A DNA stretch of 64,000 nucleotides from Planctomycetota bacterium (GCA_016794425.1 JAEUHR010000043.1:128141-192140); one strand, 5' to 3'. Shown: positions 7,714 to 34,322, counted from the first letter of the stretch. Made by a program: numbers and translations. Notes: generated from the letters alone by a model not told the origin.

Positions 7714-7715
7714 CA

Positions 7716-14398: not shown

Positions 14399-15472
14399 AT
14401 GAGCGACACGAAGCAGACGGAAGACGCGCCGAAGAAGGACCACGGCGTGCTGTACATCGGCATGGACCTCGGCACGTCGCGGACCTCGGTGTCCGCCAGC
14501 AACGGCGTGCGGGAGACCGTCTACTCGATGGTCGGCTACCCGAAGGACGTCGTCAGCATGAAGCTGCTGAAGAAGGAGGTCCTGTTCGGCAAGGAGGCGC
14601 TCGAGAAGCGTCTGTCGCTGAAGCTCTACAAGCCGCTCGAGAAGGGCGTGCTGAAGTACACCGGCGACGCCGCCAAGGACGCCGAGGCGAAGGCCAACCT
14701 GAAGGCCGCCCAGGACCTGATCGGCGAGGCGATCCGGCTGGCGAAGCCGCGCAAGGACGAGCTGGTCTACTGCGTGATCGGCGCGCCGGCCGAGGCGTCG
14801 GTGAAGAACCGCGAGGCGATCATCGAGGCGGCGCGCGCGCACGTCGACTCGGTGATGCTGTGCAGCGAGCCGTTCTCGGTCGCCTACGGGCTCGACTGGC
14901 TCGAGGACGTGCTGGTCGTCGACATCGGCGCCGGCACGACCGACCTGTGCCGCATGCACGGCACGATGCCCGAGGAGACCGACCAGGTGATGTACGACAT
15001 CGCCGGTGACGCGATCGACGAGGAGCTGTCGCGCCGGATCACCGAGACGTGCCCGGGCGCGCAGTTCACGATCCACATGGTCAAGGACATCAAGGAGCGC
15101 TACGGCTTCGTCGGCGACGCGCCGGAGCGCTGCATGGTCGACCTGCCGGTCGACGGCAAGCCGACCGCGTTCGACCTGACCGACCAGATCCGCGCGGCCT
15201 GCTCGATCCTGATCGACCCGATCGTCAAGGGCATCCACAAGCTGATCGCGTCGTTCGATCCGCAGTTCCAGACCAAGCTGAAGAACCGCGTGCTGCTCGC
15301 CGGCGGTGGCTCGATGGTCAAGGGCCTCGACAGCGCGGTCGAGAAGGCCATGAAGGAACGGCTCGGCGGCGGCAAGGTCATCCGCATCGAAGAACCGATC
15401 TACGGCGGCGCGAACGGTGCGCTGAAGATCGCGCACGACATGCCGGCGGACTTCTGGGAGCAGCTCAAGTAG
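14399..15472 (+). CDS. MamK-family bacterial actin-like protein
   Basis: Actin-fold motifs MDLGTSRTS, VIGAPAEAS, VVDIGAGTTDL, LLAGGGSMVKGL and GGANGALKIA. MamK-like strings recalled from Magnetospirillum MamK are VGYPKDVVSMKLL, SEPFSVAYGLD and the C-terminal PADFWEQL. Confidence 0.85.
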   Translation: MSDTKQTEDAPKKDHGVLYIGMDLGTSRTSVSASNGVRETVYSMVGYPKDVVSMKLLKKEVLFGKEALEKRLSLKLYKPLEKGVLKYTGDAAKDAEAKANLKAAQDLIGEAIRLAKPRKDELVYCVIGAPAEASVKNREAIIEAARAHVDSVMLCSEPFSVAYGLDWLEDVLVVDIGAGTTDLCRMHGTMPEETDQVMYDIAGDAIDEELSRRITETCPGAQFTIHMVKDIKERYGFVGDAPERCMVDLPVDGKPTAFDLTDQIRAACSILIDPIVKGIHKLIASFDPQFQTKLKNRVLLAGGGSMVKGLDSAVEKAMKERLGGGKVIRIEEPIYGGANGALKIAHDMPADFWEQLK

Positions 15473-15705: not shown

Positions 15706-16428
15706 TCAGCGGACTTCGTACTGGGCTTCGAGGATCTCTTGCAGCTGGTAGAAGTCTTGGATGTCGTGGCTCGGCTCGGTCGCGCCGACCTCGTCGGTGT
15801 GGCGGCCGCCGCGGCGGATGCGGGCGGTCCACCAGCCTTCGGCGTTGCAGGGATCGATGTCGTGCGTCGGGTTGTCGCCGACGTAGAGGCAGCGGTTGGG
15901 TGGCAGGGCCAGGCGCTGCAGCACGCGGCGGTAGAGCTTCGGGTTCGGCTTGCTGAAGCCGACCTGGTCGGTGAAGAAGATCGCCGACGGGGTCAGGAAC
16001 TCGAGCACGTTGAGCCGGACGAGCTTCTCGGCCTGCTTGATCGTGATGCCGGCCGAGACGATGCCGCGCACGAGCTTGGTCGTCGCGAGCCACTTCAGGA
16101 CCTCGTAGACGTCGTCGTGGACCTTGAACTCGCGCCACTTGGTCTCGTGGTAGGCGGCGACGCCGGCGGCGACGATCACGGCGCGGTTGTGGCCGGCGGT
16201 CGATTCGGGACCCAGACGGTCGAGCACTTTGTCGAAGTGGCCGCCGTAGTTGCTCGAGAACTCGGCGATCACTTCGTCGAGTTCGCGCGTCGCCTCGTCG
16301 CGTTCGGCGCGCAGCCCGGCGGCGATCATCGCTTCGATCGCAGCGCGGCGGGCCTTGCCGGCGAACGCGGACGTCGAGAACAGCGTGTCGTCGATGTCGA
16401 AGAAGATCGCGTCGAGGCCTCGGCTCAC
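15706..16428 (-). CDS. HAD-superfamily hydrolase
   Basis: Motif I FFDIDDTLF, motif II-like VSAG, motif III-IV SKPNP...YVGDNPTHDI. The GTG start at 16428 forms a GTGA overlap with the upstream gene's stop (16425-16427). Confidence 0.8.
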   Translation of the reverse strand: MSRGLDAIFFDIDDTLFSTSAFAGKARRAAIEAMIAAGLRAERDEATRELDEVIAEFSSNYGGHFDKVLDRLGPESTAGHNRAVIVAAGVAAYHETKWREFKVHDDVYEVLKWLATTKLVRGIVSAGITIKQAEKLVRLNVLEFLTPSAIFFTDQVGFSKPNPKLYRRVLQRLALPPNRCLYVGDNPTHDIDPCNAEGWWTARIRRGGRHTDEVGATEPSHDIQDFYQLQEILEAQYEVR

Positions 16429-16904
16429 GGCGGCAGTTGTCCGCCATCGGCTCCGGCCTCGCAACCCCTCTCGGGGCGCTGGCGCCGCGGGGCCAGGTCG
16501 ATGCCCGGTGCCGGGTGCCGGATCAGCCAGAAGGCGGCGGCGGTGCCGAGCACGTTCAGCCCGGCGTCACGCAGCGTGTCGAACGTGTCGCGTTCGGCGA
16601 CCGGCCAGAGCCACTGGCCGGCCTCGTGCAGCAGCGTGATCACCAGCGGGCAGCTGCAGCCGATCCACAGGGCCGCCCGACGCTGGGCGGTGCTGGTGGC
16701 GCGGTGCACGCCGACGAGCCACGTCGTGCCCAGCGTGGCCGCCACCAGCGCGAAGAAGTGCAGGCCCCAGGAGCGCAGGAACACGTGCCAGCGCACGAAC
16801 AGGACCAGGTCGATGCCGACGACCATCGCGGTCGAACCGAGCATCGCGGCGACCCAGCGGCGCGTGTAACGGCGCCGCGCTCGATCGAACTCCGGGCGGG
16901 CCAT
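16425..16904 (-). CDS. hypothetical integral membrane protein
   Basis: Four hydrophobic helices (e.g. AAMLGSTAMVVGIDLVLFV, HFFALVAATLGTTWLVGV). Overlap-coupled to the HAD gene. No family recognised. Confidence 0.5.
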   Translation of the reverse strand: MARPEFDRARRRYTRRWVAAMLGSTAMVVGIDLVLFVRWHVFLRSWGLHFFALVAATLGTTWLVGVHRATSTAQRRAALWIGCSCPLVITLLHEAGQWLWPVAERDTFDTLRDAGLNVLGTAAAFWLIRHPAPGIDLAPRRQRPERGCEAGADGGQLPP

Positions 16905-17012: not shown

Positions 17013-19583
17013 TCAGGGCTTGCGCACGTCGGTGATGTGCGCCTGCACCATCACCATCAGGCTGCGGTTCTCGTCGGCCGAGCCTTCCTGCTTGAACAGG
17101 AACGAGACCAGCGGCAGCCGGGCCAGGATCGGCACTTCGGCGCGGCGCTCCTTGGTCAGCACCTGGCGCAGGCCGCCGATCAGCACCGTGCCGCCGTCCG
17201 GCACCTTCGCGGTGGTCGAGAAGTCGGTCACCGTGAGGTTCGGCAGCTGCAGCGTCACCGGCAGCGTCGAGCCGGCCAGCGACGTCGTGAACGTCGGGAT
17301 CGGGCGCTGCAGTTCGGCGACGGTCGGGTTCAGGTTCAGCGTGATGTACTTGCGGTCGTGGTGGATGACCGGCGTCACGTCCAGCACGATGCCGTCCTGG
17401 ATCACGTCGATCTTCGGGTCGGCGATGAACGCCGCCTGCGCCACTTCGACGTCGAAGTCGCGCACGTAGGCGGTCTGGTTGATCACTGCGACGTGGCCGC
17501 GCTCGCGGTTCAGCACCGACAGGATCTGGCTGTTCATGATCTCCGCGTCCTGCCGCTTCTCGACGGCGCGCAGGATCATGTTCAGCTGGATGTCGTCGAT
17601 CAGCGTCCAGCCGGCGGTCATGCCGCCGGTCGGGCTCAGCACGCGGCCGAGGTCGTTGGCGAAGAAGTTCTCGGTGCGGGCGCGCACGTCGCCATCGCCG
17701 CCGTCGTTGAAGAACATGCCGGCCAGCGGGTTGGCGGCCGGGTCACCGGTGCCGCCGTTGTCGAAGCCGCGCGAAGCGTTGTTCTGCAGGCCGCTGGTGA
17801 GGTCGTCGGTCGTGACCGTGTCGCCCTTGTTGCCGGAGCCGCCGAGGCCGCGGAAGTCGACGCCGATCTCGGTCAGGAAGTTGCGCGAGATGGTCAGGAA
17901 CTTCGAGTCGATCGTGACGATCGGCGTCGCGAAGCGGCGCATGTCGTTCAGGACCTGGATCACCTTCGCGTGCATCTCCGGGCTCGCCTGCACGGACAGC
18001 AGGCCGGTCTCCTCGGGGTTGATCGCGACGCCTTCCGACTCCCAGTACTTCGGGTCGGTGGCTTCCTTCAGGTTGGTCACCAGGTCGGCGAGCTCGATGC
18101 CGGCGACCGGGTCGTCGCCTTCGCTGCCGGTGCGCGGCGTGTCGTCGCTGCTCTCACCGGGGATCGTGTCGATGCGCGGCGGCAGGAACTGCGTGCGCTT
18201 GAAGATCAGATCCTTCACCGGGTAGATGTCGCTGACGATCGTGCCGGCGGCTTCCGACTTGTTGCCGATCACGACGACGCCGTTCTTCACGGTCCAGGCG
18301 AGGTTCTGGCTGCGCCCGATCATGAAGTTCAGGAAGTTCTCGAGGGTCAGCGAGCCGGCGAGCTCGATCACGACCTTGAGGCTCTCGCTGCCGATGATCT
18401 CGCGCGCCTGCGGCGTGGTCAGGATCTGCACGCCGGTGATCAGGTTCAGGTTCTTGACGACTTCGAGGAAGTCGCCGGTCTCCTCGGTGTAGGTCAGCTT
18501 GCCGACCTGCTCGGTGCGGATCTTGTCCCACACGGCCTGGTCCTGCGGGTCGACGACCTTGATCTTGGCGTTGCGCGCCGCGCGGCCGTTGGCCTTCTCC
18601 CACGTCGCCTGGTCGAGGTTCAGGATCGCCGTCTGCGGGATCTTCAGCTCACCATCGGACTCGATCATCGCGCGGATCGCCTTCGCGCGCTCGTCGTACC
18701 AGCGGGTGGTGACGTCGTTGCGGCCGGCCTTGACCGCCGCGTTGTGCATCTCGAACGCGATGCTGTTGTGCGGCTCGATCTCGAGCGCGCGGGCGGCGAG
18801 CTCCTGCGACCGGCTGAACGCACGCTGCTCGAACGCGAGCTGTGACTCCTGGATGTAGCCGTCGACCTTGGCGCGGCGGCGCGCCTCCAGCTCGGCGTTC
18901 TCCTGGCGCAGGCGTTCGGCCAGTTCGGCGTTCTGCTTGGCGACGTTCTCGCGCTGCTGGTCGTCGTAGAGCCGCTGCGCTTCGTCCGTGGCCGCGCGCA
19001 CGTCCTGCGGCAGCTGAGCCCAGTCGTAGTCGTCCTTCAGTTCGATCGTCAGCGCGGCGATGCGCAGTTCCTCGAGCGCGCCGGCGTAGTTCTTCGCCGC
19101 CATCGCCTCGCGGGCGGTCTGCAGCTTCGCCATCACTTCGGCGCGCGCGCGTTCCTCGCCGATCTGGCGCAGGCGCATCTGCTCTTCGCCGAACGTGTTG
19201 ATGCGGCCGATCGGCTCACCGAGTTCGGCCTGCACCGACGCGAGCAGCGTGCGGACCTGTTCGTCGGCGGGCATCAGCTCCTTCGCGCGCAGCAGTTCGC
19301 TCTTGGCCGCTTCGAGCTGGCCGTTCGCGCGCAGGTTCTGCGCGTTCTCGAGGTACTTCGCGACCAGCGCGCGCTGGCGCTCGTTGCGCACGCGCTCCTC
19401 GAGCGTGCCGCCCTGCGGATCCTGGCTCTGCACGCCGCGGCCGCCGGTGCCCGAATCGGTGGTCGGCGTGCCGGCGGGACTGGAGTCCTGAGGCGTGTTC
19501 GACTCGGGCGGAGTCGAGCACGAGGAGCCGAGAACGGCCGCGGTCAGGGAAGCAGCGAGAAGGCGCGGGTGTTCGAGAGCCAT
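17013..19583 (-). CDS. secretin-family outer-membrane channel (paralogue 1) with long N-terminal helical extension
   Basis: C-terminal secretin domain (LNMILRAVEKRQDAEIMNSQILSV...VPDGGTVLIGGL...VPILARLPLVSFLFKQ). N0/N1-like modules (ENFLNFMIGRSQNLAWTVKNGVVVIG). Signal ending LGSSC (non-canonical lipobox). About 270 aa of helical repeat follow the signal. ATG checked at 19581-19583. Confidence 0.85.
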   Translation of the reverse strand: MALEHPRLLAASLTAAVLGSSCSTPPESNTPQDSSPAGTPTTDSGTGGRGVQSQDPQGGTLEERVRNERQRALVAKYLENAQNLRANGQLEAAKSELLRAKELMPADEQVRTLLASVQAELGEPIGRINTFGEEQMRLRQIGEERARAEVMAKLQTAREAMAAKNYAGALEELRIAALTIELKDDYDWAQLPQDVRAATDEAQRLYDDQQRENVAKQNAELAERLRQENAELEARRRAKVDGYIQESQLAFEQRAFSRSQELAARALEIEPHNSIAFEMHNAAVKAGRNDVTTRWYDERAKAIRAMIESDGELKIPQTAILNLDQATWEKANGRAARNAKIKVVDPQDQAVWDKIRTEQVGKLTYTEETGDFLEVVKNLNLITGVQILTTPQAREIIGSESLKVVIELAGSLTLENFLNFMIGRSQNLAWTVKNGVVVIGNKSEAAGTIVSDIYPVKDLIFKRTQFLPPRIDTIPGESSDDTPRTGSEGDDPVAGIELADLVTNLKEATDPKYWESEGVAINPEETGLLSVQASPEMHAKVIQVLNDMRRFATPIVTIDSKFLTISRNFLTEIGVDFRGLGGSGNKGDTVTTDDLTSGLQNNASRGFDNGGTGDPAANPLAGMFFNDGGDGDVRARTENFFANDLGRVLSPTGGMTAGWTLIDDIQLNMILRAVEKRQDAEIMNSQILSVLNRERGHVAVINQTAYVRDFDVEVAQAAFIADPKIDVIQDGIVLDVTPVIHHDRKYITLNLNPTVAELQRPIPTFTTSLAGSTLPVTLQLPNLTVTDFSTTAKVPDGGTVLIGGLRQVLTKERRAEVPILARLPLVSFLFKQEGSADENRSLMVMVQAHITDVRKP

Positions 19584-19988
19584 CGGTTCACGCTCGATGC
19601 GTACGAGATTGCGGGGAGCACCGCGGGGACGGTGTTCTGTCACGTGGCGGCGACAAGCGACCGGTGAACGAAACGGCGGAGGGCACCGCCGCCGATCCGG
19701 AGGGGGACGTTCGGAACCGGGCCGGTCGAGAGGGACTTGCAGCCGACACGTGAGCGGACAGTCCTGTCGGGCCCGGAACGGGCGCGGCAGGGGAGGCGCA
19801 AAGTAGCCACGTCAGCACCCTTGTGCCAGTCCTTTTCGTGCCCTGCCATGGCCCGCTCGCGGGCCGTGCCCGGCCGCGGCAGCCCGCCAACCGTCGGGGT
19901 TCCAGCGGCCCCGGTCCGCTCGGCCGACCGGCGCAACCACCGACGCAAAACGACCGGACCAGCAACGACGCGGCCCACCGCGCCGCGT

Positions 19989-20046
19989 GGGCGGGGTGGG
20001 CCGGGTCGGGGCTGCCGGGGGCTGCCGGGTGGGCTCGCTGGGGTGG
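19989..20046 (+). other. G-tract cluster on the + strand (C-rich on the minus-strand transcript), directly after the exbD stop
   Basis: Nine G3-G5 runs between 19989 and 20043. On the minus-strand RNA this is a C-rich, G-poor stretch 3' of exbD (stop at 20053-20055), similar to a Rho-utilisation site. Confidence 0.45.
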
Positions 20047-20052
20047 CGCTGG

Positions 20053-20601
20053 TTACTTGGCGCCGAGGCCGCCGCCGTAGTTGACCTCCGTGAAGCCGGC
20101 TTCCGCGCACGCGTCGGTCGTCTTGGCGACGTCCTCGTAGTAGGTGCCCGGGTAGGCCTCGATGACACAGGCCATCAGCTTCTTGCCGCCGGTTGCCTTG
20201 TCCGGCACCTGGCTCGACGGATCGGCCGCGATGCGCTTCAGCTCCTTCAGCACGTCGTCGAGGTTGTAGAGCGGCTTCGGTCCCACTTCCCACTTCACGC
20301 GGTGGTCGCGCAGCTTGAAGCGGAACGGACGCCCGGTGTTCGGGTTGACCGCACCAGCCGAGCCGCCCGCGGCATACTCGGGCGTGCCGGCGCTCTCGAC
20401 GTAGATCTTCACCGAGAGCTGCTCCTGCGGCTCGACGACCGAGCTCTGGCTGCCCTTGTCCTTGGGCAGGTAGGCCGACAACTTCGACTCGAGCACTTTG
20501 AAGTCGATGCAGATGAAGAAGATGATCATCAAGAACACGACGTCGATCATCGGCGTCATGTCCGGCTTGACCTCTTCCTGGGCGTCGTCGAGCGCGCTCA
20601 T
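20053..20601 (-). CDS. exbD: ExbD/TolR-family protein (paralogue 2, 182 aa)
   Basis: KPDMTPMIDVVFLMIIFFI N-terminal TM motif. ATGA overlap with the upstream exbD (20598-20601). The periplasmic domain is longer than usual. Confidence 0.85.
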   Translation of the reverse strand: MSALDDAQEEVKPDMTPMIDVVFLMIIFFICIDFKVLESKLSAYLPKDKGSQSSVVEPQEQLSVKIYVESAGTPEYAAGGSAGAVNPNTGRPFRFKLRDHRVKWEVGPKPLYNLDDVLKELKRIAADPSSQVPDKATGGKKLMACVIEAYPGTYYEDVAKTTDACAEAGFTEVNYGGGLGAK

Positions 20602-21134
20602 TTCGTCAACCTCGGGTTCTTCTCACCGGTTTCCTTGTCCTGCTCCGACATCGCGAGCTCGACCTTCCAGAAGGCGATCTCCGGCTGGCTGCACTGCTTC
20701 ATGATCTCGCCGATGTAGTGCCACTCGGTCCACTTGTCGGCGCGGATCAGGATCGGGTCGTCGATCAGTGGCACCATCCTGCCGCCGATGTCCTCTTCCT
20801 TCAGCTTGAGGCGTCCGGTGTTGAGGCCCTGCTGCCGGATGTCCAGCAGCAGCTGCTTGATCGGGGCGAAGTTCTTGCCGTGCACCGCCGGGTCGTAGGC
20901 AACCTGCTTCTCGAACACCACCGAGCCGTTCTGCAGCACGTTGATGATCGGCCGGTTCTCCGGCGGCGTGTCGTCGGGCTCCTGGTAGACCGCCCGCGGC
21001 AGGATCAGGTCTTCGAGGTTCTTCTGGCTCAGGTCGATGACCAGAACGAAGAAGATCATCAGCAGGAACACGCAGTCGATCATGGGCGTCATGTCCATCT
21101 CGACGTTCTGCTGCACCAGTTTTCGGACGTCCAT
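20598..21134 (-). CDS. exbD: ExbD/TolR-family protein (paralogue 1, 178 aa)
   Basis: The internal ATG (MDVRKLVQQNVEMDMTPMIDCVFLLMIFFVLV) was checked at 21132-21134. ExbD TM motif present. Confidence 0.85.
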   Translation of the reverse strand: MDVRKLVQQNVEMDMTPMIDCVFLLMIFFVLVIDLSQKNLEDLILPRAVYQEPDDTPPENRPIINVLQNGSVVFEKQVAYDPAVHGKNFAPIKQLLLDIRQQGLNTGRLKLKEEDIGGRMVPLIDDPILIRADKWTEWHYIGEIMKQCSQPEIAFWKVELAMSEQDKETGEKNPRLTK

Positions 21135-21259
21135 TCGAGGTCTCCTTGGAGTGGGGCCGCCGCGGAGGCGGCCCGTCATCACATCCGCGGCACGTTCCCA
21201 ACGGCCGGGAGGATGCTCAGTTCAGTGGCTCCGTTTGCCGAGGGGGATGCGCCGGGGGC

Positions 21260-21985
21260 TCACTTGCCGCGGAAGCGCTCGAACAGGTCTTCGCTGATCG
21301 CGTTGATCTCGGTGGACGTCTTGATGACGCGATTGCGCAGGTAGAAGAAGGAGACACCGACCGGGATCGCGACCGAGAGGCCGAAGATCGTCGTGATGAG
21401 GGCCATCTTGATACCGCCTGCCAGGGTTGCCGGGCTGACCGAGCCGCCGGCGTCGGCGATCGTGCCGAACGTGACGAACATGCCGGACACCGTGCCGAAC
21501 AGGCCCATCATTGGTGCGATGGCGGACAACAGCGACAGCCAGCCGATCTTCTGGAACAACTTGACCGACTCCTCGGTCTGCATTTCGCGCAGCGACACCT
21601 GCATCGTCTCGAACGAGTGGCCGAGCTTCGACAGGCCGGCGCCGACGCAGTTCGTCAGGTAGTTCTTCTCCTGCTCGCACAGCTCGACCGCTTCCTGGAA
21701 GTTCTCGGCGTCGAACAGCGCCTCGAGTTCGCCGATCAGGTCCGGCGGCGCGAGCTTCTCGCGCTTGATCGTCATGAAGTTCTCGATGATCAGCGCGACG
21801 GCGACGATCGACATCACGATGATCAGGTAGCCGATGAGGCCGGCGTTCTCGTAGGCAAACACGTCCGCGATGGTGCTGCGCTTCCTGGGCGCGGCGGCGT
21901 CGCCCTGGGCGAGCAGGCCGGTGGCCAGGAGCAGCGGAGCGCTGACGGCAAGGAAGCGGACGAACGGCACTTGGACGCGGATCAT
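21260..21985 (-). CDS. exbB: MotA/TolQ/ExbB-family proton channel with N-terminal signal peptide
   Basis: LLSAIAPMMGLFGTVSGMFVTF and GGIKMALITTIFGLSVAIPV channel motifs. Signal MIRVQVPFVRFLAVSAPLLLATGLLAQG. ATG checked at 21983-21985. Confidence 0.9.
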   Translation of the reverse strand: MIRVQVPFVRFLAVSAPLLLATGLLAQGDAAAPRKRSTIADVFAYENAGLIGYLIIVMSIVAVALIIENFMTIKREKLAPPDLIGELEALFDAENFQEAVELCEQEKNYLTNCVGAGLSKLGHSFETMQVSLREMQTEESVKLFQKIGWLSLLSAIAPMMGLFGTVSGMFVTFGTIADAGGSVSPATLAGGIKMALITTIFGLSVAIPVGVSFFYLRNRVIKTSTEINAISEDLFERFRGK

Positions 21986-22105
21986 GGGGAGCTGGGACTC
22001 CTGCGCTTGGCTATGCAGGTGGTGGGGAGAGGGGCGGATTCGAAAAGGGGGTGCGGAAGTCTGCTGGACACCGTGCACCCTGTGAAGGGGGCACCGGCGA
22101 AAGTT

Positions 22106-23227
22106 CTATTTGGCTTGCTCGGCCTTTGCGGCGGCGGCCCACGGCGACGCCGGGTAGCCGTCGATCACGTTCTGGAAGTAGCCGTTCGCGCGTGCCTTGA
22201 AGCTGTCGCCTTCGCGCTCGGGCCCGAGTGCCAGGAGGCACCGGCCGAGGTAGTAGTTGGCCTTGGCGCTGGCCTCGCCGCTGGTGACGTCGAACGCGCA
22301 GGCCTTGGCCAGCGCCAGTTGCGCGCGGCGGAAGTCGTCGGGCCGGTTGTTGGCGACCGCGGCCAGCAGGATCGCTTCGCCCTCGCCGGCGTGGCCGGCC
22401 GCCACGAGTTCCTGCTGGTCGCTGCTGGTCAGCGCGCGGAAGAACTGCTCGGCGCGGTCGAAGTCGCGTTCGCCGAGGTAGGTCTCGCCTTCGCCGACGC
22501 GGGCCTGGATCTTCAGCGCGCGCAGTTCGGCGTCGTCGGGCGACGGCGTGCCGAGCGCGGCGTCGATCGCCGACGCGGCGGCCTGGAACGCCGAGCGCGC
22601 CTCCGGCGCTTTGCCGTCGGCCAGCAGCGTCAGCGCCAGCTCCGACTTCGCGCGGGCGCTCCAGATCGCGCCGAAGCCCTCGCGGGTGGCGCGATCGTCG
22701 AGCTCGCGCAGCGTCGTCGCGGCCTGGCCGCCGACACCGGCGAGGCGCTCGGCGCGGCCCGCGAGCAGCAGCGCTTCGGGCGTGCGCCAGTGGTTGGCAT
22801 TGGCGGTCAACCAGGCCTTCGCGCGCTCGCCGGCGGTCGCGGCAGCGCCCTTGTCGGCACCGATCGCGGCGACGGCGCACTTGACCAGGAAGAACTCGGC
22901 GTCGACCTTGACCAGCGCGCGGTCGGTCTGGTTCTGGGCCTCGCCGAACATCTGCGCCGCGTGGCGGAAGTCGCCCTTCTCCATCGCGGCGCGGCCGACC
23001 AGGTAGGCATCGGGCAGGTTGCTCCACTCGATCGCGAGCACCTGGTGCGCCGGCACTTCGACGCTGTCGTTGCCGCGCTTGGCGCGCACGCCCGACAGCA
23101 GGAACTCGGTGATCTCGAGGCCACGCACGCGCGCACCGTCCTTCTTGACGATGGTGTCGTTGACCTTCTGCGCGGTGGCGAACGGCGCCAGCAGCGCGCC
23201 GGCGACCAGGATGGGGAGGTAGCGCAT
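22106..23227 (-). CDS. exported TPR-like helical-repeat protein (373 aa)
   Basis: Signal MRYLPILVAGALLAPFATAQ. A small beta module is followed by Ala-rich helical repeats (ANYYLGRCLLALG, GETYLGERDFDRAEQFFRAL). Confidence 0.7.
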   Translation of the reverse strand: MRYLPILVAGALLAPFATAQKVNDTIVKKDGARVRGLEITEFLLSGVRAKRGNDSVEVPAHQVLAIEWSNLPDAYLVGRAAMEKGDFRHAAQMFGEAQNQTDRALVKVDAEFFLVKCAVAAIGADKGAAATAGERAKAWLTANANHWRTPEALLLAGRAERLAGVGGQAATTLRELDDRATREGFGAIWSARAKSELALTLLADGKAPEARSAFQAAASAIDAALGTPSPDDAELRALKIQARVGEGETYLGERDFDRAEQFFRALTSSDQQELVAAGHAGEGEAILLAAVANNRPDDFRRAQLALAKACAFDVTSGEASAKANYYLGRCLLALGPEREGDSFKARANGYFQNVIDGYPASPWAAAAKAEQAK

Positions 23228-23243
23228 CGGAGGGATCGGTGGG

Positions 23244-26111
23244 TCAGCGGTTGAAGTTGAAGTAGCTCAGCAGCTTCAGGCCGTCGGCGCCGTGCCCGCG
23301 CAGGGTCTCGAAGTTGTCGGTGGCCCTGGCGATGCGGTAGAGCTTGTCGGCGTACTCCTTGTACTCGCCGTTCTTCGCACCGGCCTGCTTGGCGAACCAG
23401 TACGCCTCCCAGTGGAAGCGGTACCAGTCGAGACTGTACTTCTTGACGTCGGGGCGCAGGCCCCAGGTGCGGTACTCGCCGAAGTACTTGTTGTAGGCTT
23501 CCGCCGGCTTGTCGAGGCCGACGATGCGCACCGGCGCGCCGGTGCCCGAGATCTCGAACCAGCCGCCCAGCGCGCGGCAGATCTGGCGCTTGATCTCCCA
23601 CTGCTGCGGGTTCGCCTTCTCGGCGGCGACCAGCATGTCGTAGGCCTCCTGGAACTTCTGCTGGCGCAGCAGCGCCTCGCCGATCATCGGCCGCACCAGT
23701 TGGTCGACGACGCGCACGACGCTCTCGGTCTTGTCGGCGCCGTAGAGGTCGAGCGTCTTGCGCGCGACCTCGTCGACGCGCTGCCACTGGCCGAGCTGCT
23801 CGGCGGCCTGCATCGTGCCGACCAGCACGGCGAGCTGCGGCTTCGGCGAGTTCGCGATGTAGGAGATACCGAGCGACAGCAGCTTGCCGCGCACCGCGTC
23901 GACCGCGGCCTGCGCGGCCGCGATCTTGCCGTCTTCGGCCTTCTTCGCGATCGCCTGGTCCAGTTCCTTGGTCAGCGCGGTGATCTGGTCCTGGTAGGCC
24001 TTGAACAGTTCGGTCGCGAGGCGCGAGCCGCGCACCTCGTCGAGCGCACGCAGCTGGGCGTAGACCTCTTCGGCCTTGTCGAACTCGCCGAGGTCGGCGT
24101 GCAGGCGGCCCAGGTAGGCGAGCACCGCCGGCAGATTGGCCTCACCGCCCTTGGCGAAGTTCGTGACGTAGGTGCGCGCCGCTTCGACTGCGGCCGGGTA
24201 CTTGGTCAGGTCCTTGGCCAGCTTCAGTTCGTCGTCGCCGCGGGCCTCGGCGTAGGTCATCTGCACCTCGGTGTAGGCGGCCTCGGCCTGCGCGTTGGCG
24301 CGCGCCTGCTGCTTGCCGTTGTCCTTCGCATCGATCGCGTTCTGCCCGCTCCACTCGCGGTAGGCCTGCAGCGCCTGCCGCGCCGACGCGAAGTCGCCCT
24401 GCTGCGCGTGCGCCTTGGCGATGCGCACGCGGGCCTGTTCGTAGAACACGAAGGCCGGCCCGACGTTGCCGTACTGCGTGATCGCGTCGGCGAACTTCTT
24501 GTCGTTGAACGCGTCGTTGCCGGCCTTCCAGAACAGCTTGTCGCCAACCGTGCTGGAGTACTGCGTGATCCCGACCGTGGCCTCGGCGTAGAGCGGGTCG
24601 AAGAACGGGTCGTTCTTGGTTGCGCGCTTGAGCTGCGTCATGGCGCGGTCGAGCGTGTCGGCGGCGTCGGCGGCGCGCTTGGTGTCGGTAGGGCCGTAGC
24701 GCCTCAGGCCCTCGTTGAGCGCCAGCACCGATTCGAGGTAGCGGTCGGTGACGCCGAACGCGGTGCCCAGCAGCTGCCAGGCCTCGAGGCCGAGCTTCTG
24801 CTGCTCGTCCTGGTTCATCGCGCCGATCGCGCGGCGCAGGCGCTTGATCGCCTCCTCGTAGTTCTTGTTCTGGAACTCGCCCTTGCCGATCTCGAACAGC
24901 AGCGTGCCGGACACCAGCCCGCTCTGCACCGCGAGGATGTCGCGCAGCACGGCCTTGGCCTTGACGCCGACGTAGTCGCTCGGGTGCTTGTCGTTGATGC
25001 GCTGGGTCATCGCGAGCGCCTGCGCGACCTTCTGCGCGTCGCCGGACTCGGCGAGGAAGCGCGACTCGGCCAGCAGCATCTGGTGGCCCCACTGCTCGCC
25101 GACGACGTCGAACAGGTCGGCGCCCTTCTCGCCGAACTTCGTCATGTGCTCACGGAACTTCGTGAACAGCGCGGCCGTGTCGGCCGAGCCTTCGCGGATC
25201 ATGACCTCCGCGGTGCGCACGTAGACCTCCTGCAGCATCTCGAACAGGAAGCCCTGCATCTCGCCGGTCAGACCGAGTTCGTCGCTGCTCTCGAGCGACT
25301 TGGCGATCTGGTCGACGGTGCCCTTGTAGAGGTCGATCGCGTCGCCGACCTTGCCGTCGACTTCGTGGCACTGCGCGATCTCGAACAGGCCACGCAGGCC
25401 GATCGCGGTTTCTTCGCCGGCCTCGAGCACCATCTCGGTCAGGTCCTCGATCGCGCGCGCGACGTAGACGCTGCGGTCCGTCTTGACCGCGCGCGCCTGC
25501 TCGCGGCTCAGCACGCCGCGGCGCATCCACATCAGGTAGTACTCGATGTCCTTCTCGGGGTCCTTCCGCAGCGGCCGCAGGTGGTCCATCACCTTCGTGC
25601 ACGCGTCGATGCCGGCGCGGAACACCGTCGCCGCCTCCTCCTCGAGTTCCTTGACGCGCTCGGGGTCCGACTCGCGCGCGATGTCGAGCTCCTCGACCAG
25701 GAACTGGCCGAACTCCTGCGACGCGTTGGCGAGCGTCGAGCGGGCCTCGATCTGCACGCCGGTGTCCGACGAGCGTTCGACCAGCTCCTTCGACTTGTCG
25801 ATCGCCTCCTTGAACAGCTGGCGCTGCTGGGTGCGGTCGCTGCGCGAACGCGCGCCGTAGTAGGCGACTTCGACCGCGAGCTGCGCGATCTTGTCCTGGT
25901 CCGAGGCGCCGCGGAACTCGCCGGCGAGGCGCTCGGCCTCCTCCTTGGCGAGCTCGATGAAGCGCATCTCGCGCGCCAGGGAGCGCACGAACGAGATCTC
26001 GCGGTCGAGCTTCTGCTGTTGCGCGAACAGCGCCGGCGACAGCGAACCGAGGGCGAGGAGCAGGAGCCCACTTTGGCCGCAGGTGCGGCGCGGGCAGAAG
26101 CGTGCAGTCAC
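23244..26111 (-). CDS. large exported helical-repeat (TPR-like) protein (955 aa)
   Basis: GTG start with signal GLLLLALGSLSPALFAQ. All-helical repeat composition throughout and balanced K/E/A/L usage, unlike shadow ORFs. It begins 16 nt upstream of the next gene. Confidence 0.7.
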   Translation of the reverse strand: MTARFCPRRTCGQSGLLLLALGSLSPALFAQQQKLDREISFVRSLAREMRFIELAKEEAERLAGEFRGASDQDKIAQLAVEVAYYGARSRSDRTQQRQLFKEAIDKSKELVERSSDTGVQIEARSTLANASQEFGQFLVEELDIARESDPERVKELEEEAATVFRAGIDACTKVMDHLRPLRKDPEKDIEYYLMWMRRGVLSREQARAVKTDRSVYVARAIEDLTEMVLEAGEETAIGLRGLFEIAQCHEVDGKVGDAIDLYKGTVDQIAKSLESSDELGLTGEMQGFLFEMLQEVYVRTAEVMIREGSADTAALFTKFREHMTKFGEKGADLFDVVGEQWGHQMLLAESRFLAESGDAQKVAQALAMTQRINDKHPSDYVGVKAKAVLRDILAVQSGLVSGTLLFEIGKGEFQNKNYEEAIKRLRRAIGAMNQDEQQKLGLEAWQLLGTAFGVTDRYLESVLALNEGLRRYGPTDTKRAADAADTLDRAMTQLKRATKNDPFFDPLYAEATVGITQYSSTVGDKLFWKAGNDAFNDKKFADAITQYGNVGPAFVFYEQARVRIAKAHAQQGDFASARQALQAYREWSGQNAIDAKDNGKQQARANAQAEAAYTEVQMTYAEARGDDELKLAKDLTKYPAAVEAARTYVTNFAKGGEANLPAVLAYLGRLHADLGEFDKAEEVYAQLRALDEVRGSRLATELFKAYQDQITALTKELDQAIAKKAEDGKIAAAQAAVDAVRGKLLSLGISYIANSPKPQLAVLVGTMQAAEQLGQWQRVDEVARKTLDLYGADKTESVVRVVDQLVRPMIGEALLRQQKFQEAYDMLVAAEKANPQQWEIKRQICRALGGWFEISGTGAPVRIVGLDKPAEAYNKYFGEYRTWGLRPDVKKYSLDWYRFHWEAYWFAKQAGAKNGEYKEYADKLYRIARATDNFETLRGHGADGLKLLSYFNFNR

Positions 26112-26239
26112 GGGCAGACTCCGGGATTGGCTAGGCTGCGTTCGTACGGGCGATGCCGCGGCCGTCGCGCGACGGCCTGGGCGCGGATTCGGCGCGCGGG
26201 GAGGGGGCTGCCACAGCGCGCCACAGAGGGGAACGGCCG

Positions 26240-26267
26240 ACTATAGCGACGCGTTCACTCGTTCCAA
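26240..26267 (-). promoter_or_regulatory. candidate sigma70-type promoter TTGGAA-N16-TATAGT (minus strand)
   Basis: The reverse complement of 26262-26267 is TTGGAA and that of 26240-26245 is TATAGT. It lies about 130 nt upstream of the 955-aa gene start. Motif match only. Confidence 0.3.
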
Positions 26268-26380
26268 CCGCGTGCTGTCCGTTGCGCGGTGCGCGGTCGG
26301 CCGGGCCGGAAACGACCGCGGCCGCCGTCGCCCGGGGGCGCCGGCGGCCGCGGGCCGCGTTGGGTGCGAGCGAGCGCCGC

Positions 26381-29110
26381 TCAGCGGGTCGCCGTCGCCA
26401 TCGGCTGCGGCAGCGTCGCCGCGTTCGGCTCGAACTCCTCCATCAGGATGATCTTGGCGCGGATCAGGATCAGGATCTTGCGGTTCTGCTCCGACGTGCC
26501 GTTGCGGCTGAACAGCCAGCTGAGGCCCGGCAGGCTGCCCAGCAACGGCACCGAGCTGCGCAGGTTCTGCCGCTCCACCAGGCGCATGCCGCCGAGCATC
26601 ATCGTGCCGCCGTCCGGGATCGTGACGGTCGTACGGACGACCTGCAGCGTGACTTCCGGCAGTTGGATCGAGATCGGCTGGCCGACGCCCAGCGTCGTCG
26701 TGAAGGTCGGGATCGGCAGCTGCAGCGTCATCACGGTGGGGCGCAGCTCCATCGTGACGAAGCGCAGGTCGCTGTCGACCACCGGCCGCACGTCGAGCGC
26801 GACGCCGTCGTGCACGGTGCCGATCACCGGGTTCGCGACTGCGGCCGCCTGCGCGATTTCGACTTCGAAGTCGCGGATGTAGGCGAGGTTGCGCAGGAAG
26901 TACATCGACGCCCGCGTGTTGTTGTAGATCAACAGCCGCGGCGCCTCGATCTGCTCGCTGCGCTCCTGCTTCGACACCGCGCGCAGCACGATCTCGACTT
27001 CGGTGTCGTCGAGGAAGGCGTACTGCAGCGACAGGCCGCCGGCGTTGGTCAACCGGCCGGTGCGCCCCGCGAACGTCTGGTCGGCCTGCACGTCGCCGTT
27101 GGTCAGGCCGCTGTTGTTGGCGCCGAACGTGTTGTTGCCGCCGAGCGTCTGGTCGTAGAGGTTCTCGATGCGGGCCATGACGTCGCCGTCACCGCCGTCG
27201 TCGAAGAACAGGCCCGGCTCGGTGCCGGTGCCGACTTCGCCGGGCGCCGCCGGGTTCTGCTGCTGGCGCGGGCCGAAGTCGTCGAAGCCGGCGTTGGGCC
27301 GGTTGCTGTTCTTCTCGAGGCCGCGGCCGGCGAGGCCCTGCGACGCCTGGTTGCCGAGGCCGCGCATGTCGATGCCGACGTCCTCGAGGAAGTTGTCCTC
27401 GACCTTCAGGAAGCGCGATTCGACGTCGACCTGGATGCCGACGTGCCGGCGCAGGTTCTGGACCAGCTCGTCGACCTGCTGGTGCGTTTCGCGGTCGGCG
27501 CGCACGAACAGGATGCCGGCCTGCGGCGTGATCGTGAACGGGCTGCCGTCCCACTTGTCGGTCGCGACGGTCGTCTTGATCAGGTCGATCAGGCGGCCTT
27601 CGTCGACCACGGACGGCTGCGGATCCTCTTCCTCGGCTTCGATCAGCGGGCGGTCGTCGCCCGGCGTCGGCAGCCGCAGGATCGGGCCGGGCTTGCCGAC
27701 GACGCCCTGCACGAGGTCCTGGACCTTGTAGGTCTCGAGGTAGAGCTGGCCGATCGCGTTGGCCGGGCTCACGAGGTGCACCATGCCGTCGCGCACGCGG
27801 TAGGCGACGCCGGTGGCGACCTGGATCGCGCGCAGCGCTTCGGCCACCGACCGCCGCGTCAGGCGGAAGTCGGTCAGCGTCGTCGTCTCGGCAGGCATCT
27901 CGCGCACTTCGGCGGTGGGGAAGAACGTCACGCCGGTGACCTGGCTGTAGTAAGCAGCCCAGTCCTGCACGGTCGCGCTCGAGAAGTTGTGCTCGAGCTG
28001 CGTCTCTTCGAGCAGCTTGGTCACGGCCTGGTTCTCGGGCGAGTCCAGGTCCTGCGGCTGCGAGTACTGCGTCGGCTCCCGCTGCGACACCACGGCCCAG
28101 CGCGCCGGGTCGAACACGACGGTGTCGCTCTGCGGCTTCAGGCTGTGCTGCAGCTCGAGGAACGTCTTGTTCCACTCGGTGCGGAAGCGCTGGCTGTTGG
28201 TGTCGACCGCGAGGTTGTGCCGCGCCATGTCGGCGACGTTGCGCAGCTCGAGCGCCATCGGGTTGGTCGGATCCTGCAGCAGCGCCTGGTCGACCAGCGC
28301 CAGCGAGCGCTGGTAGTCACTGGCCTGGAAGCTCAGGTTCGCCTGCTCCAGCAGGCGCGCGACGCGGCCTTCGCGCTGCACTTCGTTCTCGCGCTGCATG
28401 CGCTGCAGTTCGGCCTCGCTGGCCTGCTTGGCGCGGTCGATCGCTTCGCGCTCGGCGTTGCGCTTGGCATCGCGCGCCTTGGCCAGCATCTCCTCGGCCT
28501 GGCGGCGCAGCGGCTCGTTCTCCTGCGCGTAGGCCGAGAACCGCATCGCGGTCGCGGCGCGCTCGAAGTTGTCGATCGCGCGGCCGAAGTTGCCGAGCTC
28601 CATCTCGGCTGAGCCGAGCTGCAAGTCCTTCTCGACCAGCGAACGCTCGCGCTCGAGCCGGATGCGGTCCTGGATGATCGCGTCGCCGACCACGTCGCGC
28701 AGCGGCACGCCCGAGCCGTCGCCGAGGATCTGGTTGCAGCGCAGCAGGATCTCGCGCGCCTCCGCCTGGTTGTTGTCGAGTTCCAGCGCGTAGGCGGCCT
28801 CGTTGCGCGCGTCTTCGAACAGGCGCAAGTCGAACGACTTCCGCGCGTTCTCGACCACCTTGCGCACCAGCGCGGCGCGGTCCTGCGGGTCCTGGCCCTG
28901 CGGCTCCTGCGTGCGGCGGCCGCGCGACGCCGAAGCGTCCGCCGCCATGCCGCGCGAGCCGGCGCTCGCATCGGCAGCGCCGGTCATCGGCGCGCCGTCG
29001 GGGGACTGCGAAACTTCTTGGACGCCAGCGGTGGTGCCCGAACAGGCGGCGAGGGCGAGCAGGGACGACGCGCAGAGGCCGCGCAAGCGCAGGGTCTGGA
29101 CCTTGATCAT
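26381..29110 (-). CDS. secretin-family outer-membrane lipoprotein (paralogue 2) with long N-terminal helical extension
   Basis: Canonical lipobox LLALAACS. Helical region about 300 aa. N0/N1-like modules. Secretin domain (EIVLRAVSKQERSEQIEAPRLLIYNN...IPDGGTMMLGGM...VPLLGSLPGLSWLFSR). ATG checked at 29108-29110. Confidence 0.85.
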   Translation of the reverse strand: MIKVQTLRLRGLCASSLLALAACSGTTAGVQEVSQSPDGAPMTGAADASAGSRGMAADASASRGRRTQEPQGQDPQDRAALVRKVVENARKSFDLRLFEDARNEAAYALELDNNQAEAREILLRCNQILGDGSGVPLRDVVGDAIIQDRIRLERERSLVEKDLQLGSAEMELGNFGRAIDNFERAATAMRFSAYAQENEPLRRQAEEMLAKARDAKRNAEREAIDRAKQASEAELQRMQRENEVQREGRVARLLEQANLSFQASDYQRSLALVDQALLQDPTNPMALELRNVADMARHNLAVDTNSQRFRTEWNKTFLELQHSLKPQSDTVVFDPARWAVVSQREPTQYSQPQDLDSPENQAVTKLLEETQLEHNFSSATVQDWAAYYSQVTGVTFFPTAEVREMPAETTTLTDFRLTRRSVAEALRAIQVATGVAYRVRDGMVHLVSPANAIGQLYLETYKVQDLVQGVVGKPGPILRLPTPGDDRPLIEAEEEDPQPSVVDEGRLIDLIKTTVATDKWDGSPFTITPQAGILFVRADRETHQQVDELVQNLRRHVGIQVDVESRFLKVEDNFLEDVGIDMRGLGNQASQGLAGRGLEKNSNRPNAGFDDFGPRQQQNPAAPGEVGTGTEPGLFFDDGGDGDVMARIENLYDQTLGGNNTFGANNSGLTNGDVQADQTFAGRTGRLTNAGGLSLQYAFLDDTEVEIVLRAVSKQERSEQIEAPRLLIYNNTRASMYFLRNLAYIRDFEVEIAQAAAVANPVIGTVHDGVALDVRPVVDSDLRFVTMELRPTVMTLQLPIPTFTTTLGVGQPISIQLPEVTLQVVRTTVTIPDGGTMMLGGMRLVERQNLRSSVPLLGSLPGLSWLFSRNGTSEQNRKILILIRAKIILMEEFEPNAATLPQPMATATR

Positions 29111-29274
29111 GCTGGGAAAGCCTGCCAGATAGCGATCGGGGAGAGGGGCGATGCCACCGCGCTCGACGTCACCGGCCTGCATGCCACAGGAACCCGGAAG
29201 AGGGCGGCGAGAATGGCGGTTCCGGACGATTCCTCGCGCGTTCGTGGGAGCTTCGCACGGGCGAGGGACGCCGG

Positions 29275-29303
29275 ACGGTAGCGAGCCCTTCCCGCAGGGT
29301 CAA
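29275..29303 (-). promoter_or_regulatory. candidate promoter TTGACC-N17-TACCGT (minus strand) upstream of secretin paralogue 2
   Basis: The reverse complement of 29298-29303 is TTGACC and that of 29275-29280 is TACCGT. Motif match only. Confidence 0.25.
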
Positions 29304-30157: not shown

Positions 30158-31255
30158 CTACCGCGGTTCCGGGTCGGCGGCCATCGGGTAGTCGGCCTCG
30201 CGCGGGAACAGCCCGTAGCTGTGGGCGAGGCTCGGCCGCGGTCCGAGCGCGATCACCGAGTGCCAGGCAACGTCGTCGATGCCTTGCGAAGGCAAGAGGA
30301 TCACGTCGCCGGCGCGCAGCACGAACAGCGCGCCGTGGGCGGCCAACCGGGCCGTGAACGCCGCGTCGCGGTTCAGGCGCCGGTAGAGCTGTCGATCGTC
30401 GCCGCGGTCGAGTGCGTCCATCGCGCGCTGCACCGCGCGCGGCGAGCGGTCGTTGGCCAGCAGCGCGGCGAGCCGGCGCTTGCCGAGCGCGAGCCATGCC
30501 GTGTGGCCTTCGAGCTGGCTGAACACGACGCCGAGCTGGCCCGGCTCGGCATCGTGGTGGAACACCGCGCCGCCGTTCGGCGCGTTGTTGTAGACGATGC
30601 GCTCGCTGAGCCGGTGCGGCCGCTGCAGCAGCTGCGCCAGCAGCCGCCGCAGCGGCGCGCAGCGCAGCACCGCGTCGCATTCGGGGAACGCGCGCGCTGC
30701 GAACTGGTCGACCCAGCCGGCGGTCAGATCGGACGCCTGCATCCACTCCTCGAGCTGCTCGAGGCCGGCCGAGAAGCGGATCCGCAGCGATCGATCGCAG
30801 GCATCGTCGGCGATCCACGTCAGCTTGGCCCACAGATCCTTCGCCACCACGCGGCCGTCGACCTCGGCGTCGACGAACACGCGTTCGATCTCGCGCGGGT
30901 CGTTGCGGTCCTTGGTGCTGCCGGCGTAGCGCAGCTCGTGGTCGGCGCGCAGGCGCCGGTCCAGTTCGGCGAGGAACGCGCCGCCGCGCCGCAGCCGGTC
31001 GAACATGCGCAGCGTCGCCGCGATCGCGGCGGCGTGGCGCGCCGGGCCCTGGCCGAGCATGCCGGGCAGGAACACCGCCTCGCTGCGCTGCCAGCGCGCC
31101 AGCGCCCGGGCGGCGTCCGGCGGCGTGCGGTCGACGGCGACCGCGAAGCCGAGGTCGGCGTCGCGGCGGCGCAGCGGCCAGACCGCGCGGCCGCGGCGGC
31201 GCAGCGCGCGGGCCGTACCGTCGGCACCGGCGGCGAGGTGGCGGGCGGTGTACAC
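30158..31255 (-). CDS. hypothetical protein, possible cupin/JmjC-like Fe(II) oxygenase fold
   Basis: Only the C-terminal ~366 codons of the 1354-aa ORF look coding. There is an HxD...H candidate triad (AVFHHDAEPG ... VAWHSVIALG). The GTG start at 31255 is a guess. Confidence 0.5.
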   Translation of the reverse strand: MYTARHLAAGADGTARALRRRGRAVWPLRRRDADLGFAVAVDRTPPDAARALARWQRSEAVFLPGMLGQGPARHAAAIAATLRMFDRLRRGGAFLAELDRRLRADHELRYAGSTKDRNDPREIERVFVDAEVDGRVVAKDLWAKLTWIADDACDRSLRIRFSAGLEQLEEWMQASDLTAGWVDQFAARAFPECDAVLRCAPLRRLLAQLLQRPHRLSERIVYNNAPNGGAVFHHDAEPGQLGVVFSQLEGHTAWLALGKRRLAALLANDRSPRAVQRAMDALDRGDDRQLYRRLNRDAAFTARLAAHGALFVLRAGDVILLPSQGIDDVAWHSVIALGPRPSLAHSYGLFPREADYPMAADPEPR

Positions 31256-31339
31256 GCGCGCACAGCGTGCCGGCCGCGCCGCGCCGTGCAAGTGCGCACC
31301 TTGACCCGGTGGCGTCCGCTCGCATCCTTGTCCGGCCCG

Positions 31340-34138: not shown

Positions 34139-34322
34139 GGTCGCCGCATTCGCCGGCGGCAGTCCATTGCACCGCTGCCTCGGGCTCGCTAGCCTGCGGC
34201 GCTGCGGCTCGGTCAGCCGCAACTCGGTCAGCCCGTCGCGGTACCGCCGCGCGGGTGCTTCTGCTGGTCCATCTTCGTTTCGCTAGCCGGCGCCCGCACA
34301 GACGGGGCGCGGGGGTTTCCAC

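Follow-up and report, generated by a model that had tools for sequence, protein, structure and literature searches.

Two secretins, an ExbB-ExbD motor and exported TPR proteins encoded by one conserved gene module of uncultured Planctomycetota

Do two secretins and a proton motor of the ExbB-ExbD type, encoded side by side and away from any of their known partners, belong to one machine? This question is raised by a minus-strand gene cluster at positions 17013-29110 of a DNA stretch of 64,000 nucleotides from a Planctomycetota bacterium (GCA_016794425.1 JAEUHR010000043.1:128141-192140; GC content about 72%), the whole of which is called the window below. The original prediction, made from the sequence alone, recognized two secretins, an ExbB, two ExbDs and two exported helical-repeat proteins in this cluster, and proposed an outer-membrane secretin pore that is gated or energized by the motor through tetratricopeptide repeat (TPR) adaptors. 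The seven genes turn out to be a deeply conserved module. The chances appear about even that they encode one dedicated and co-regulated envelope machine, in which a TonB-less motor driven by the proton motive force acts via TPR scaffolds on a PilQ-type secretin complex. The genes are as follows (secretin A and secretin B are the secretin 2 and secretin 1, respectively, of the original prediction):

26381-29110, minus strand: secretin A, 909 amino acids (aa) (Pfam PF00263 Secretin, 79.8 bits)
23244-26111, minus strand: TPR955, 955 aa, exported, with TPR/helical repeats; it is the module's signature protein (Pfam TPR_2, 39.4 bits)
22106-23227, minus strand: p373, exported protein with a beta domain and a TPR solenoid (AlphaFold2; weak TPR sequence matches)
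21260-21985, minus strand: ExbB/TolQ-family proton-channel protein (Pfam MotA_ExbB, 83.9 bits; start taken from orthologue comparison)
20598-21182, minus strand: ExbD1, with a probable start at 21134 (Pfam ExbD, 54.1 bits)
20053-20601, minus strand: ExbD2, ATGA-coupled to ExbD1 (Pfam ExbD, 53.0 bits)
17013-19583, minus strand: secretin B, 856 aa (Pfam PF00263 Secretin, 87.3 bits)

This gene content is the one that was first read, a Pfam scan placing the families above their thresholds (p373 was assigned to TPR proteins via AlphaFold2). The C-termini of both secretins pass the profile threshold of PF00263 (27.5 bits) by a wide margin, and the start codons proposed for the two secretins agree with the conserved N-termini of their orthologues. 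ExbD1 and ExbD2 do overlap by ATGA (20598-20601), and 469 bp do separate ExbD2 from secretin B (19584-20052). In the same way, the N-terminal signal peptide of ExbB and those that would export the 955-aa and 373-aa proteins are legible in the sequence and are kept in distant orthologues. The claimed lack of partners holds for the window, since Pfam scans of all other plausible open reading frames (ORFs) detected no ATPase of a type II secretion, type IV pilus or type III secretion system (GspE/PilB included), no GspF/PilC platform protein, no pilin, no other gsp gene, no TonB and no TonB-dependent receptor. The cluster and the window also lack TolA, TolB and Pal, and neither TonB nor a TonB-dependent receptor was found in the cluster or in the 10-kb flanks of the related loci. 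The other ORFs of the window encode, according to Pfam, a flagellin, a PilZ protein, MutL, PNPase, FeoB, histidine-degradation enzymes and similar proteins.

The module is conserved well past close relatives. With one genome taken for each GTDB species, a profile scan retrieved 57 loci, in which the window proteins were placed by tblastn, and every sufficiently long locus among them shows the order uracil-DNA glycosylase (UDG), secretin A, TPR955, p373, ExbB, ExbD1, ExbD2, secretin B, HAD hydrolase. Seven distant loci (L062-L068), whose genomic context was examined, all retain a secretin, a TPR protein of about 970 aa, a second TPR protein of about 376-433 aa, ExbB, two ExbDs and a secretin in this order, at identities to the window proteins of 21-27% (TPR955), 26-32% (p373), 31-40% (secretins) and 47-59% (ExbB). 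All members come from uncultured Planctomycetota and the GC content of the loci ranges from 46 to 72%. Such an arrangement is far beyond chance. Furthermore, secretin A, secretin B, ExbD1 and ExbD2 each form an orthologue group of their own in every lineage, which means that the duplications of the secretin and of the ExbD predate the divergence of these lineages and that the copies were kept in place. Both pairs of paralogues are thus ancient and individually retained in position. The signature protein points to the same group of bacteria. TPR955 is 100% identical to JNL08_15460 from the metagenome-assembled genome (MAG) of a Planctomycetes bacterium and has 140 close homologues of about 955 aa, all the named ones being from Planctomycetota MAGs. 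A hidden Markov model of TPR955 searched against 1.84 billion representative proteins found 338 clusters (50% identity; E <= 1e-3), nearly all of 940-1010 aa. Some variants of the locus carry insertions (L022 and L025) or a third ExbD (L053 and L061). The latter two both come from one MAG, HK-STAS-PLAN-33, which holds two divergent copies of the whole block (their TPR proteins are 35% and 29% identical to that of the window), each with three ExbD genes and flanked by UDG and HAD; this double block is either a real duplication or the product of a mixed bin.

The spacing of the genes divides the module into three parts. The median gaps are 40 nt between TPR955 and p373, 75 nt between p373 and ExbB, 55 nt between ExbB and ExbD1 and 3 nt between ExbD1 and ExbD2 (54 loci for the last), and these five genes probably form a tight operon. 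The median gaps between secretin A and TPR955 (about 318 nt) and between ExbD2 and secretin B (about 411 nt) are longer and contain conserved promoter-like motifs. Besides, the leaders of the parts share a short motif, CCCTCT. A scan for intrinsic terminators in the cluster gave no excess over chance. The elements found in the window, with the number of loci out of 65 for the CCCTCT copies, are as follows:

29275-29303, minus strand: promoter-like motif of secretin A, TTGACC (29303-29298), 17 nt, TACCGT (29280-29275), conserved among 47 distinct UDG-secretin A spacers that were aligned (from 52 loci, duplicates removed)
26240-26267, minus strand: sigma-70-like promoter motif of TPR955, TTGGAA, 16 nt, TATAGT, conserved in 54 loci
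19800-19829, minus strand: promoter-like motif of secretin B, CTGGCAC ... GCTACTTT, conserved across loci
29199-29204 and 29142-29147, minus strand: CCCTCT in the secretin A leader (29142-29204), 43 loci
26225-26230, minus strand: CCCTCT in the TPR955 leader, 19 loci
22028-22033, minus strand: CCCTCT in the leader between p373 and ExbB, about 45 nt upstream of the start of ExbB, 47 loci
19729-19734, minus strand: CCCTCT in the secretin B leader, 36 loci

CCCTCT is otherwise avoided: both strands of the window contain 7 copies, against 20.6 expected. Of these 7 copies, five have the coding-strand orientation and belong to module leaders, two to that of secretin A and one each to those of TPR955, ExbB and secretin B. 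These four leaders account for about 0.8% of strand positions, and the enrichment has, by our calculation, a binomial P of about 1e-9. Over the 65 loci, 190 of the 305 coding-strand copies are located in the four module leaders, and the HAD leader has only 4. An extended form of the motif, with the consensus CCCCTCTCCC, is found about 40 nt upstream of the starts of secretin A (about 37 nt) and ExbB. As module leaders share a motif that is rare elsewhere, the secretin genes and the TPR-ExbBD operon are probably regulated together, and this motif is the strongest new argument for such a joint regulation. Its confinement to the module leaders also suggests that UDG and HAD, which are devoid of it, are bystanders. 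The original prediction had associated a membrane protein and the HAD hydrolase with secretin B. The HAD gene does flank the module in most lineages; the membrane protein, a hydrophobic 159-aa ORF between secretin B and HAD (16425-16904, minus strand; coding-like, with a GC content of 0.89 at third codon positions), has a homologue in one related locus only (L045, 47%). This places it outside the conserved set, probably as a lineage-specific insertion, and it was rejected as a member of the module.

The leader of secretin B also contains a structured RNA:

19653-19740, minus strand: 88-nt structured RNA in the 5' leader of secretin B (covariance model R1)

It consists of a stem P1 (GCAAG/CUUGY), an invariant UCCCUCU internal loop, a stem P2 (CGAYYGG/CCRRUCG) and a three-way junction bearing two hairpins, P3 and P4, whose loops are C-rich. 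Independent minimum free energy folds of 25 sequences agree on this architecture despite wholly different P3 stems. In 30 loci, the model R1 has a single match each, at the same position throughout. In the alignment fitted to the model, which is biased towards structure by construction, 87.7% of the cells are paired (79.3 +/- 0.8 in shuffled alignments; 26-46% in slid controls) and 18 of the 26 pairs have changed on both sides; none of 500 shuffles reaches the observed values. The covariation of P2 and P4 is visible in a plain MAFFT alignment too. No Rfam family matches this RNA, and R1 detects no further copy upstream of secretin A or of TPR955. The RNA may be a new cis-regulatory element.

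The two secretins are full-length paralogues (29% identity, E 2e-101). In all lineages, both start with a signal peptide that ends in a lipobox cysteine and is followed by a low-complexity linker (LLALAAC in secretin A; VLGSSC, with a nearly invariant Cys22, in secretin B). Secretin A continues with a helical TPR-like N-terminus, N-domains and the secretin domain. An AlphaFold2 model of secretin B (44-sequence alignment; mean predicted local distance difference test score (pLDDT) 62) has a helical-repeat, TPR-like domain at residues 61-312 (pLDDT 80-95) and alpha/beta N-domains at about 358-445 and 487-565; the barrel is poorly modelled, as expected of a monomer. Foldseek searches of the PDB matched secretin B to InvG and GspD, including N0-N1 crystal structures, and its N-terminus to TPR proteins, among which are the pilotin PilF and BamD. 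The likeness of the N-domains to GspD N0-N1 exists at the level of the fold, Pfam giving no match to Secretin_N or STN even at E 10. The secretin domains are well conserved, with nearly invariant loops, and secretin B orthologues are 61-84% identical within the core clade. Among NCBIfam families, MshL, PilQ, GspD and Amuc_1098 are the nearest, all subfamily and equivalog cut-offs being far from reached: the two secretins score 76.5 and 63.6 bits with PilQ TIGR02515 (cut-off 284), 64.7 and 56.0 bits with the GspD equivalog TIGR02517 (cut-off 351), and 70.1 and 55.2 bits with the Amuc_1098 family NF042912 (cut-off 750), of which the C-terminal 130 model positions alone are aligned. The architecture is that of the Akkermansia PilQ protein Amuc_1098 (907 aa), which has a TPR/pilotin-like N-terminal domain and a C-terminal secretin domain (PMC4960237). 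Both proteins are most probably secretins of the PilQ type known from PVC (Planctomycetes-Verrucomicrobia-Chlamydiae) bacteria, i.e. lipoproteins with a TPR/pilotin-like N-terminus, N0/N1-like domains and a secretin pore. An almost invariant Gly/Asp/Asn-rich insert of about 80 aa, which AlphaFold2 is unable to model, separates the last N-domain of secretin B from the secretin core (residues 574-654 approximately; window positions about 17620-17860, minus strand). It includes FFNDGGDGDVRARTENFF, which is found in secretin A too, and a DGGDGD stretch that resembles a calcium-binding loop. The signal peptide of secretin B was also considered as a TonB-like segment; this was rejected, as its conserved His is in the n-region, SHLS spacing is lacking and the lipobox cysteine follows.

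The motor proteins clearly belong to the ExbB and ExbD families, without fitting any of the narrower classes. ExbB scores 50.8 bits with the ExbB equivalog TIGR02797 (cut-off 206) and obtains its best equivalog score, 67 bits, with TolQ (cut-off 221). Likewise, the best matches of the two ExbDs are to TolR (24.7 and 20.7 bits; cut-off 127). Both keep the transmembrane Asp (MTPMIDCVF in ExbD1, MTPMIDVVF in ExbD2), and the similarity between them is confined to the transmembrane segment. The two exported proteins are harder to place. TPR955 matches no NCBIfam family and its profile matches no PDB sequence. In the model of p373 (pLDDT 91.4; predicted template modelling score 0.83), an N-terminal beta domain of five strands (residues 24-67) is combined with a TPR solenoid of 15 helices. 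Foldseek relates it to generic TPR folds, including PflB, a periplasmic scaffold of the flagellar motor of Campylobacter jejuni (PDB 9hmf), and its similarity to YbgF/CpoB is weak (30.7 bits with NCBIfam YbgF, cut-off 90; profile match to PDB CpoB/YbgF with E 0.04). It was considered whether TPR955 or p373 might be a membrane-anchored transducer, an idea that was rejected because cleavable signal peptides of the AXA type are conserved on both in every lineage. More generally, no module protein has a TonB/TolA-like anchor or a TonB_C domain.

The seven-gene order persisting down to 21-40% identity, the pairs of paralogues kept in position and the rare leader motif together argue that the secretins are functionally linked to the TPR-ExbBD operon, as the original prediction had supposed. 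Its further claims, that the motor gates or energizes the pore and that the module might serve in import, go beyond this link; they belong, with the stoichiometry of the motor, all physical contacts and the coupling of energy, to what we infer. The machine can be pictured in the following way. The two paralogous PilQ-type lipoprotein secretins would form its outer-membrane part, each contributing a TPR/pilotin-like domain and N0/N1-like ring domains. In the inner membrane, an ExbB pentamer and an ExbD1/ExbD2 heterodimer would make up a 5:2-type motor that turns proton flow into mechanical work. TPR955 and p373, as soluble periplasmic solenoids, would bridge this motor to the TPR and N0 domains of both secretins and would thereby stand in for a transducer of the TonB/TolA type; PflB provides a structural precedent for a periplasmic TPR scaffold of a 5:2 stator. 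The work would be spent on opening the gate of the secretin complex, on its assembly or positioning, or on the movement of something through it, by analogy with the action of PocAB-TonB3 on type IV pili in Pseudomonas and that of AglRQS on the Glt complex in Myxococcus.

Examples of an influence of motors of the TonB/ExbBD type on type IV pili and secretins are Poc-TonB3 in Pseudomonas and TonB2 in Acinetobacter transformation. PocA-PocB-TonB3 resembles the module in that a motor of the ExbB/ExbD type is linked in function with a PilQ secretin machine. [quoted passage not shown] However, Poc includes a TonB, which the module lacks, and the poc genes lie apart from pilQ, whereas the linkage in the module is hard-wired and involves two secretins and two TPR proteins. 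In composition, the module resembles the Agl-Glt (and Nfs) systems of Myxococcus and its relatives. The conserved core of Agl-Glt, thought to span the envelope, comprises AglR, AglQ and AglS (one TolQ-like and two TolR-like proteins) and the exported TPR proteins GltD/E/C (PMC3169522). One TolQ/ExbB-like gene, two unlike TolR/ExbD-like genes and genes for large exported TPR proteins are clustered in the module too, but the outer-membrane partners of Agl-Glt are beta-barrel proteins or lipoproteins instead of secretins, and its core has a TonB-like protein, GltG, of which the module cluster has no counterpart. Within the PVC superphylum itself, TPR-tolQ-tolR-tolR-vWA clusters were suggested to be new force transducers (Mol Biol Evol 2025, PMC12204202). 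In these too, a tolQ-like gene and two tolR-like genes that differ from each other come after a TPR gene; their output is a membrane-anchored vWA protein with a TonB-like SHLS motif, whereas the module has neither a vWA protein nor an anchored transducer and is flanked by secretins. PocAB-TonB3, Agl-Glt and the vWA clusters are precedents that make the proposed coupling of a motor to secretins credible. The canonical TonB-ExbB-ExbD system shares with the module the conserved transmembrane Asp of ExbD and an inner-membrane proton motor presumed to work on an outer-membrane channel. The module differs from it by the lack of TonB and of a TonB-dependent receptor, by its two ExbD paralogues, by TPR proteins in the place of the transducer and by an outer-membrane partner that would be a multimeric secretin.

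No description of a module combining secretins, ExbBD and TPR proteins was found in the literature searched (secretin with ExbD/TolQ and Planctomycetes; crateriform structures), and databases name its proteins 'hypothetical', 'GspD', 'TolA-binding protein' or 'TPR protein'. All the protein families are known, and so is the logic of a 5:2 motor, a TPR scaffold and an outer-membrane endpoint. What is new is that the endpoint is a secretin, that TonB is absent, that the secretins are paired and that their linkage to the motor is hard-wired.

The module also has kin among type IV pilus machineries. In distant relatives, secretin A is directly preceded by three extra genes, which encode a PilM-like protein and two membrane or exported proteins (g2 and g3):

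L062, 3552-6908: extra upstream genes
L067, 3881-7190: extra upstream genes
L068, 2724-6392: extra upstream genes
L064, 1-1032: partial, g3 only

The PilM-like protein (509-535 aa) scores 43 bits with Pfam PilM_2 in L068 (cut-off 27), its NCBIfam matches to PilM and to the Amuc_1101 family being below their cut-offs. It is homologous across L062, L067 and L068, and g3 across all four loci; no similarity of g2 between these loci is detectable, and no relatives of g2 or g3 were found in the PDB, Pfam or NCBIfam. Neither the trio nor pilMNOP is present in the window or in any core-clade locus according to tblastn. The module thus occurs in two forms, one long and pilus-like, the other short, the window having the short one, and the trio indicates that the module is related to type IV pilus machinery and not truly an orphan. 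The claim that the secretins have no partners therefore stands for the window and is weakened for the family, given also the PilQ-type secretins. The long form has the same gene order (a PilM-like gene, two genes, a secretin) as the pili-like cluster Amuc_1102-1098 of Akkermansia, where Amuc_1101 is the PilM/FtsA-like protein (PMC5332112), a layout that is also that of pilMNOPQ in general, and the secretins of the module and of Akkermansia are proteins of about 900 aa with the same N-terminal and C-terminal parts. On the other hand, the scores with the Akkermansia families stay below the NCBIfam cut-offs (70 and 55 bits, cut-off 750; 34-84 bits, cut-off 650), no ExbBD, second secretin or large TPR protein is encoded by the five genes described for Akkermansia, to which the comparison of gene content was confined, and the lineage of the window has no local PilM-like genes. 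In L062 (16079-17971) and L068 (17067-18932), a lipoprotein of the sulfatase/alkaline-phosphatase superfamily with a C-terminal TPR region is encoded between ExbD2 and secretin B; it may hint at polysaccharide handling or envelope modification.

Several observations weigh against the existence of a single dedicated machine. The presence of the PilM-like trio in sister lineages implies that the secretins may primarily serve a pilus machine, and the secretins are transcription units separate from the TPR-ExbBD operon. The p373 gene is gone from L026 and L049, and the fold matches of the TPR proteins are generic. As UDG and HAD also adjoin the module in most lineages, part of the synteny may be due to inertia. 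Moreover, the contacts between module proteins are putative, and other parts of the genome could hold genes for a TonB, pilus ATPases, a platform protein and pilins. Some of these points lead to another explanation, which is possible although not the one we would bet on: the secretins would be ordinary channels of a PVC filament machine, similar to type IV pili or type II secretion systems, whose ATPase, platform protein and pilins would be encoded at other places in the genome; the TPR-ExbBD genes would be accessory (e.g. in localization or assembly, as Poc) or independent, and their motor would not power transport through the pore. The secretin architecture shared with Amuc_1098 (PMC4960237), the Foldseek matches to PilF and GspD and the partial NCBIfam matches to the Amuc_1098 family agree with this, as do the own promoters of the secretins and the trio upstream of secretin A in L062, L064, L067 and L068. 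It is also common for pilMNOPQ operons to lie apart from pilBCD and pilA, and the pilus ATPase and pilin genes may be elsewhere in this genome. Nevertheless, the trio occurs neither in the window nor in core-clade loci, and the synteny with ExbBD and the TPR genes persists where the trio does not. Furthermore, the CCCTCT motif joins the secretin genes to ExbB and TPR955, and two secretins surround the motor in every lineage, which is unexpected of unrelated neighbours.

An unlikely alternative is that the TPR-ExbB-ExbD-ExbD genes encode an envelope-integrity or division system related to Tol-Pal with CpoB, the secretin-like lipoproteins being anchors that replace Pal and TolB and not pores. 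It draws on the best weak profile matches of ExbB, the ExbDs and p373, which are to TolQ, TolR and YbgF, and on the label 'TolA-binding protein' given by JGI to some orthologues; but all these scores are far under the cut-offs, TolA, TolB and Pal are missing from the cluster and the window, and the well-conserved secretin domains with their nearly invariant loops are typical of functional channels. Finally, it is very improbable that the adjacency is merely historical, i.e. that unrelated genes without a common function have stayed together in a slowly rearranging segment. The conservation at the borders of UDG and HAD, which have no obvious role in the envelope, could be explained in this way, but the flanks beyond them are rearranged in every distant lineage (MamK/ParA, ABC transporter, RND pump, EamA/PFL or GDSL lipase genes being found there depending on the lineage) while the seven genes keep their order down to the lowest identities, and the leader motif common to the module is nearly confined to it, the HAD leader being without it in almost all loci. 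This last explanation is already disfavoured.

Some neighbours of the module deserve mention. Three consecutive plus-strand genes encode a ParA/MinD-like ATPase (12602-13576), a 261-aa coiled-coil protein (13579-14364) and an actin-like protein of the MamK family (14399-15472; 407 bits with NCBIfam MamK, cut-off 400), the latter in a non-magnetotactic planctomycete. This trio adjoins the module in the core clade only and not in distant lineages. On the other side, the long ORFs seen on both strands at 30158-34222 are high-GC artefacts; comparison with relatives indicates a gene of about 383 aa upstream of UDG (minus strand) and a protein of about 930 aa with transmembrane and TPR regions (plus strand). 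The former is a radical-SAM protein in distant relatives and makes with UDG the known pair of a radical-SAM protein and a family-4 UDG. A flagellin gene (6830-7720, minus strand) and a PilZ-domain gene (41158-41499, plus strand) suggest that the organism is probably motile and uses cyclic di-GMP signalling.

If the seven genes do encode one machine, a more specific and rather doubtful version is that of a secretin translocon independent of TonB, in which ExbB-ExbD1-ExbD2, via the TPR scaffolds, would open or drive the secretin pair by means of the proton motive force without any cytoplasmic ATPase, perhaps for the uptake of macromolecules (polysaccharide, DNA) into the planctomycetal periplasm. 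If true, this would be a new class of envelope transport machine. The module provides a minimal list of seven proteins for structural modelling and reconstitution, and as a machine it would widen the known outputs of 5:2 proton motors. The leader RNA, together with the C-rich motif that the leaders share, suggests that envelope machines of Planctomycetota are subject to a layer of regulation not yet described, and the module is a concrete candidate for the macromolecule-handling envelope structures of these bacteria.

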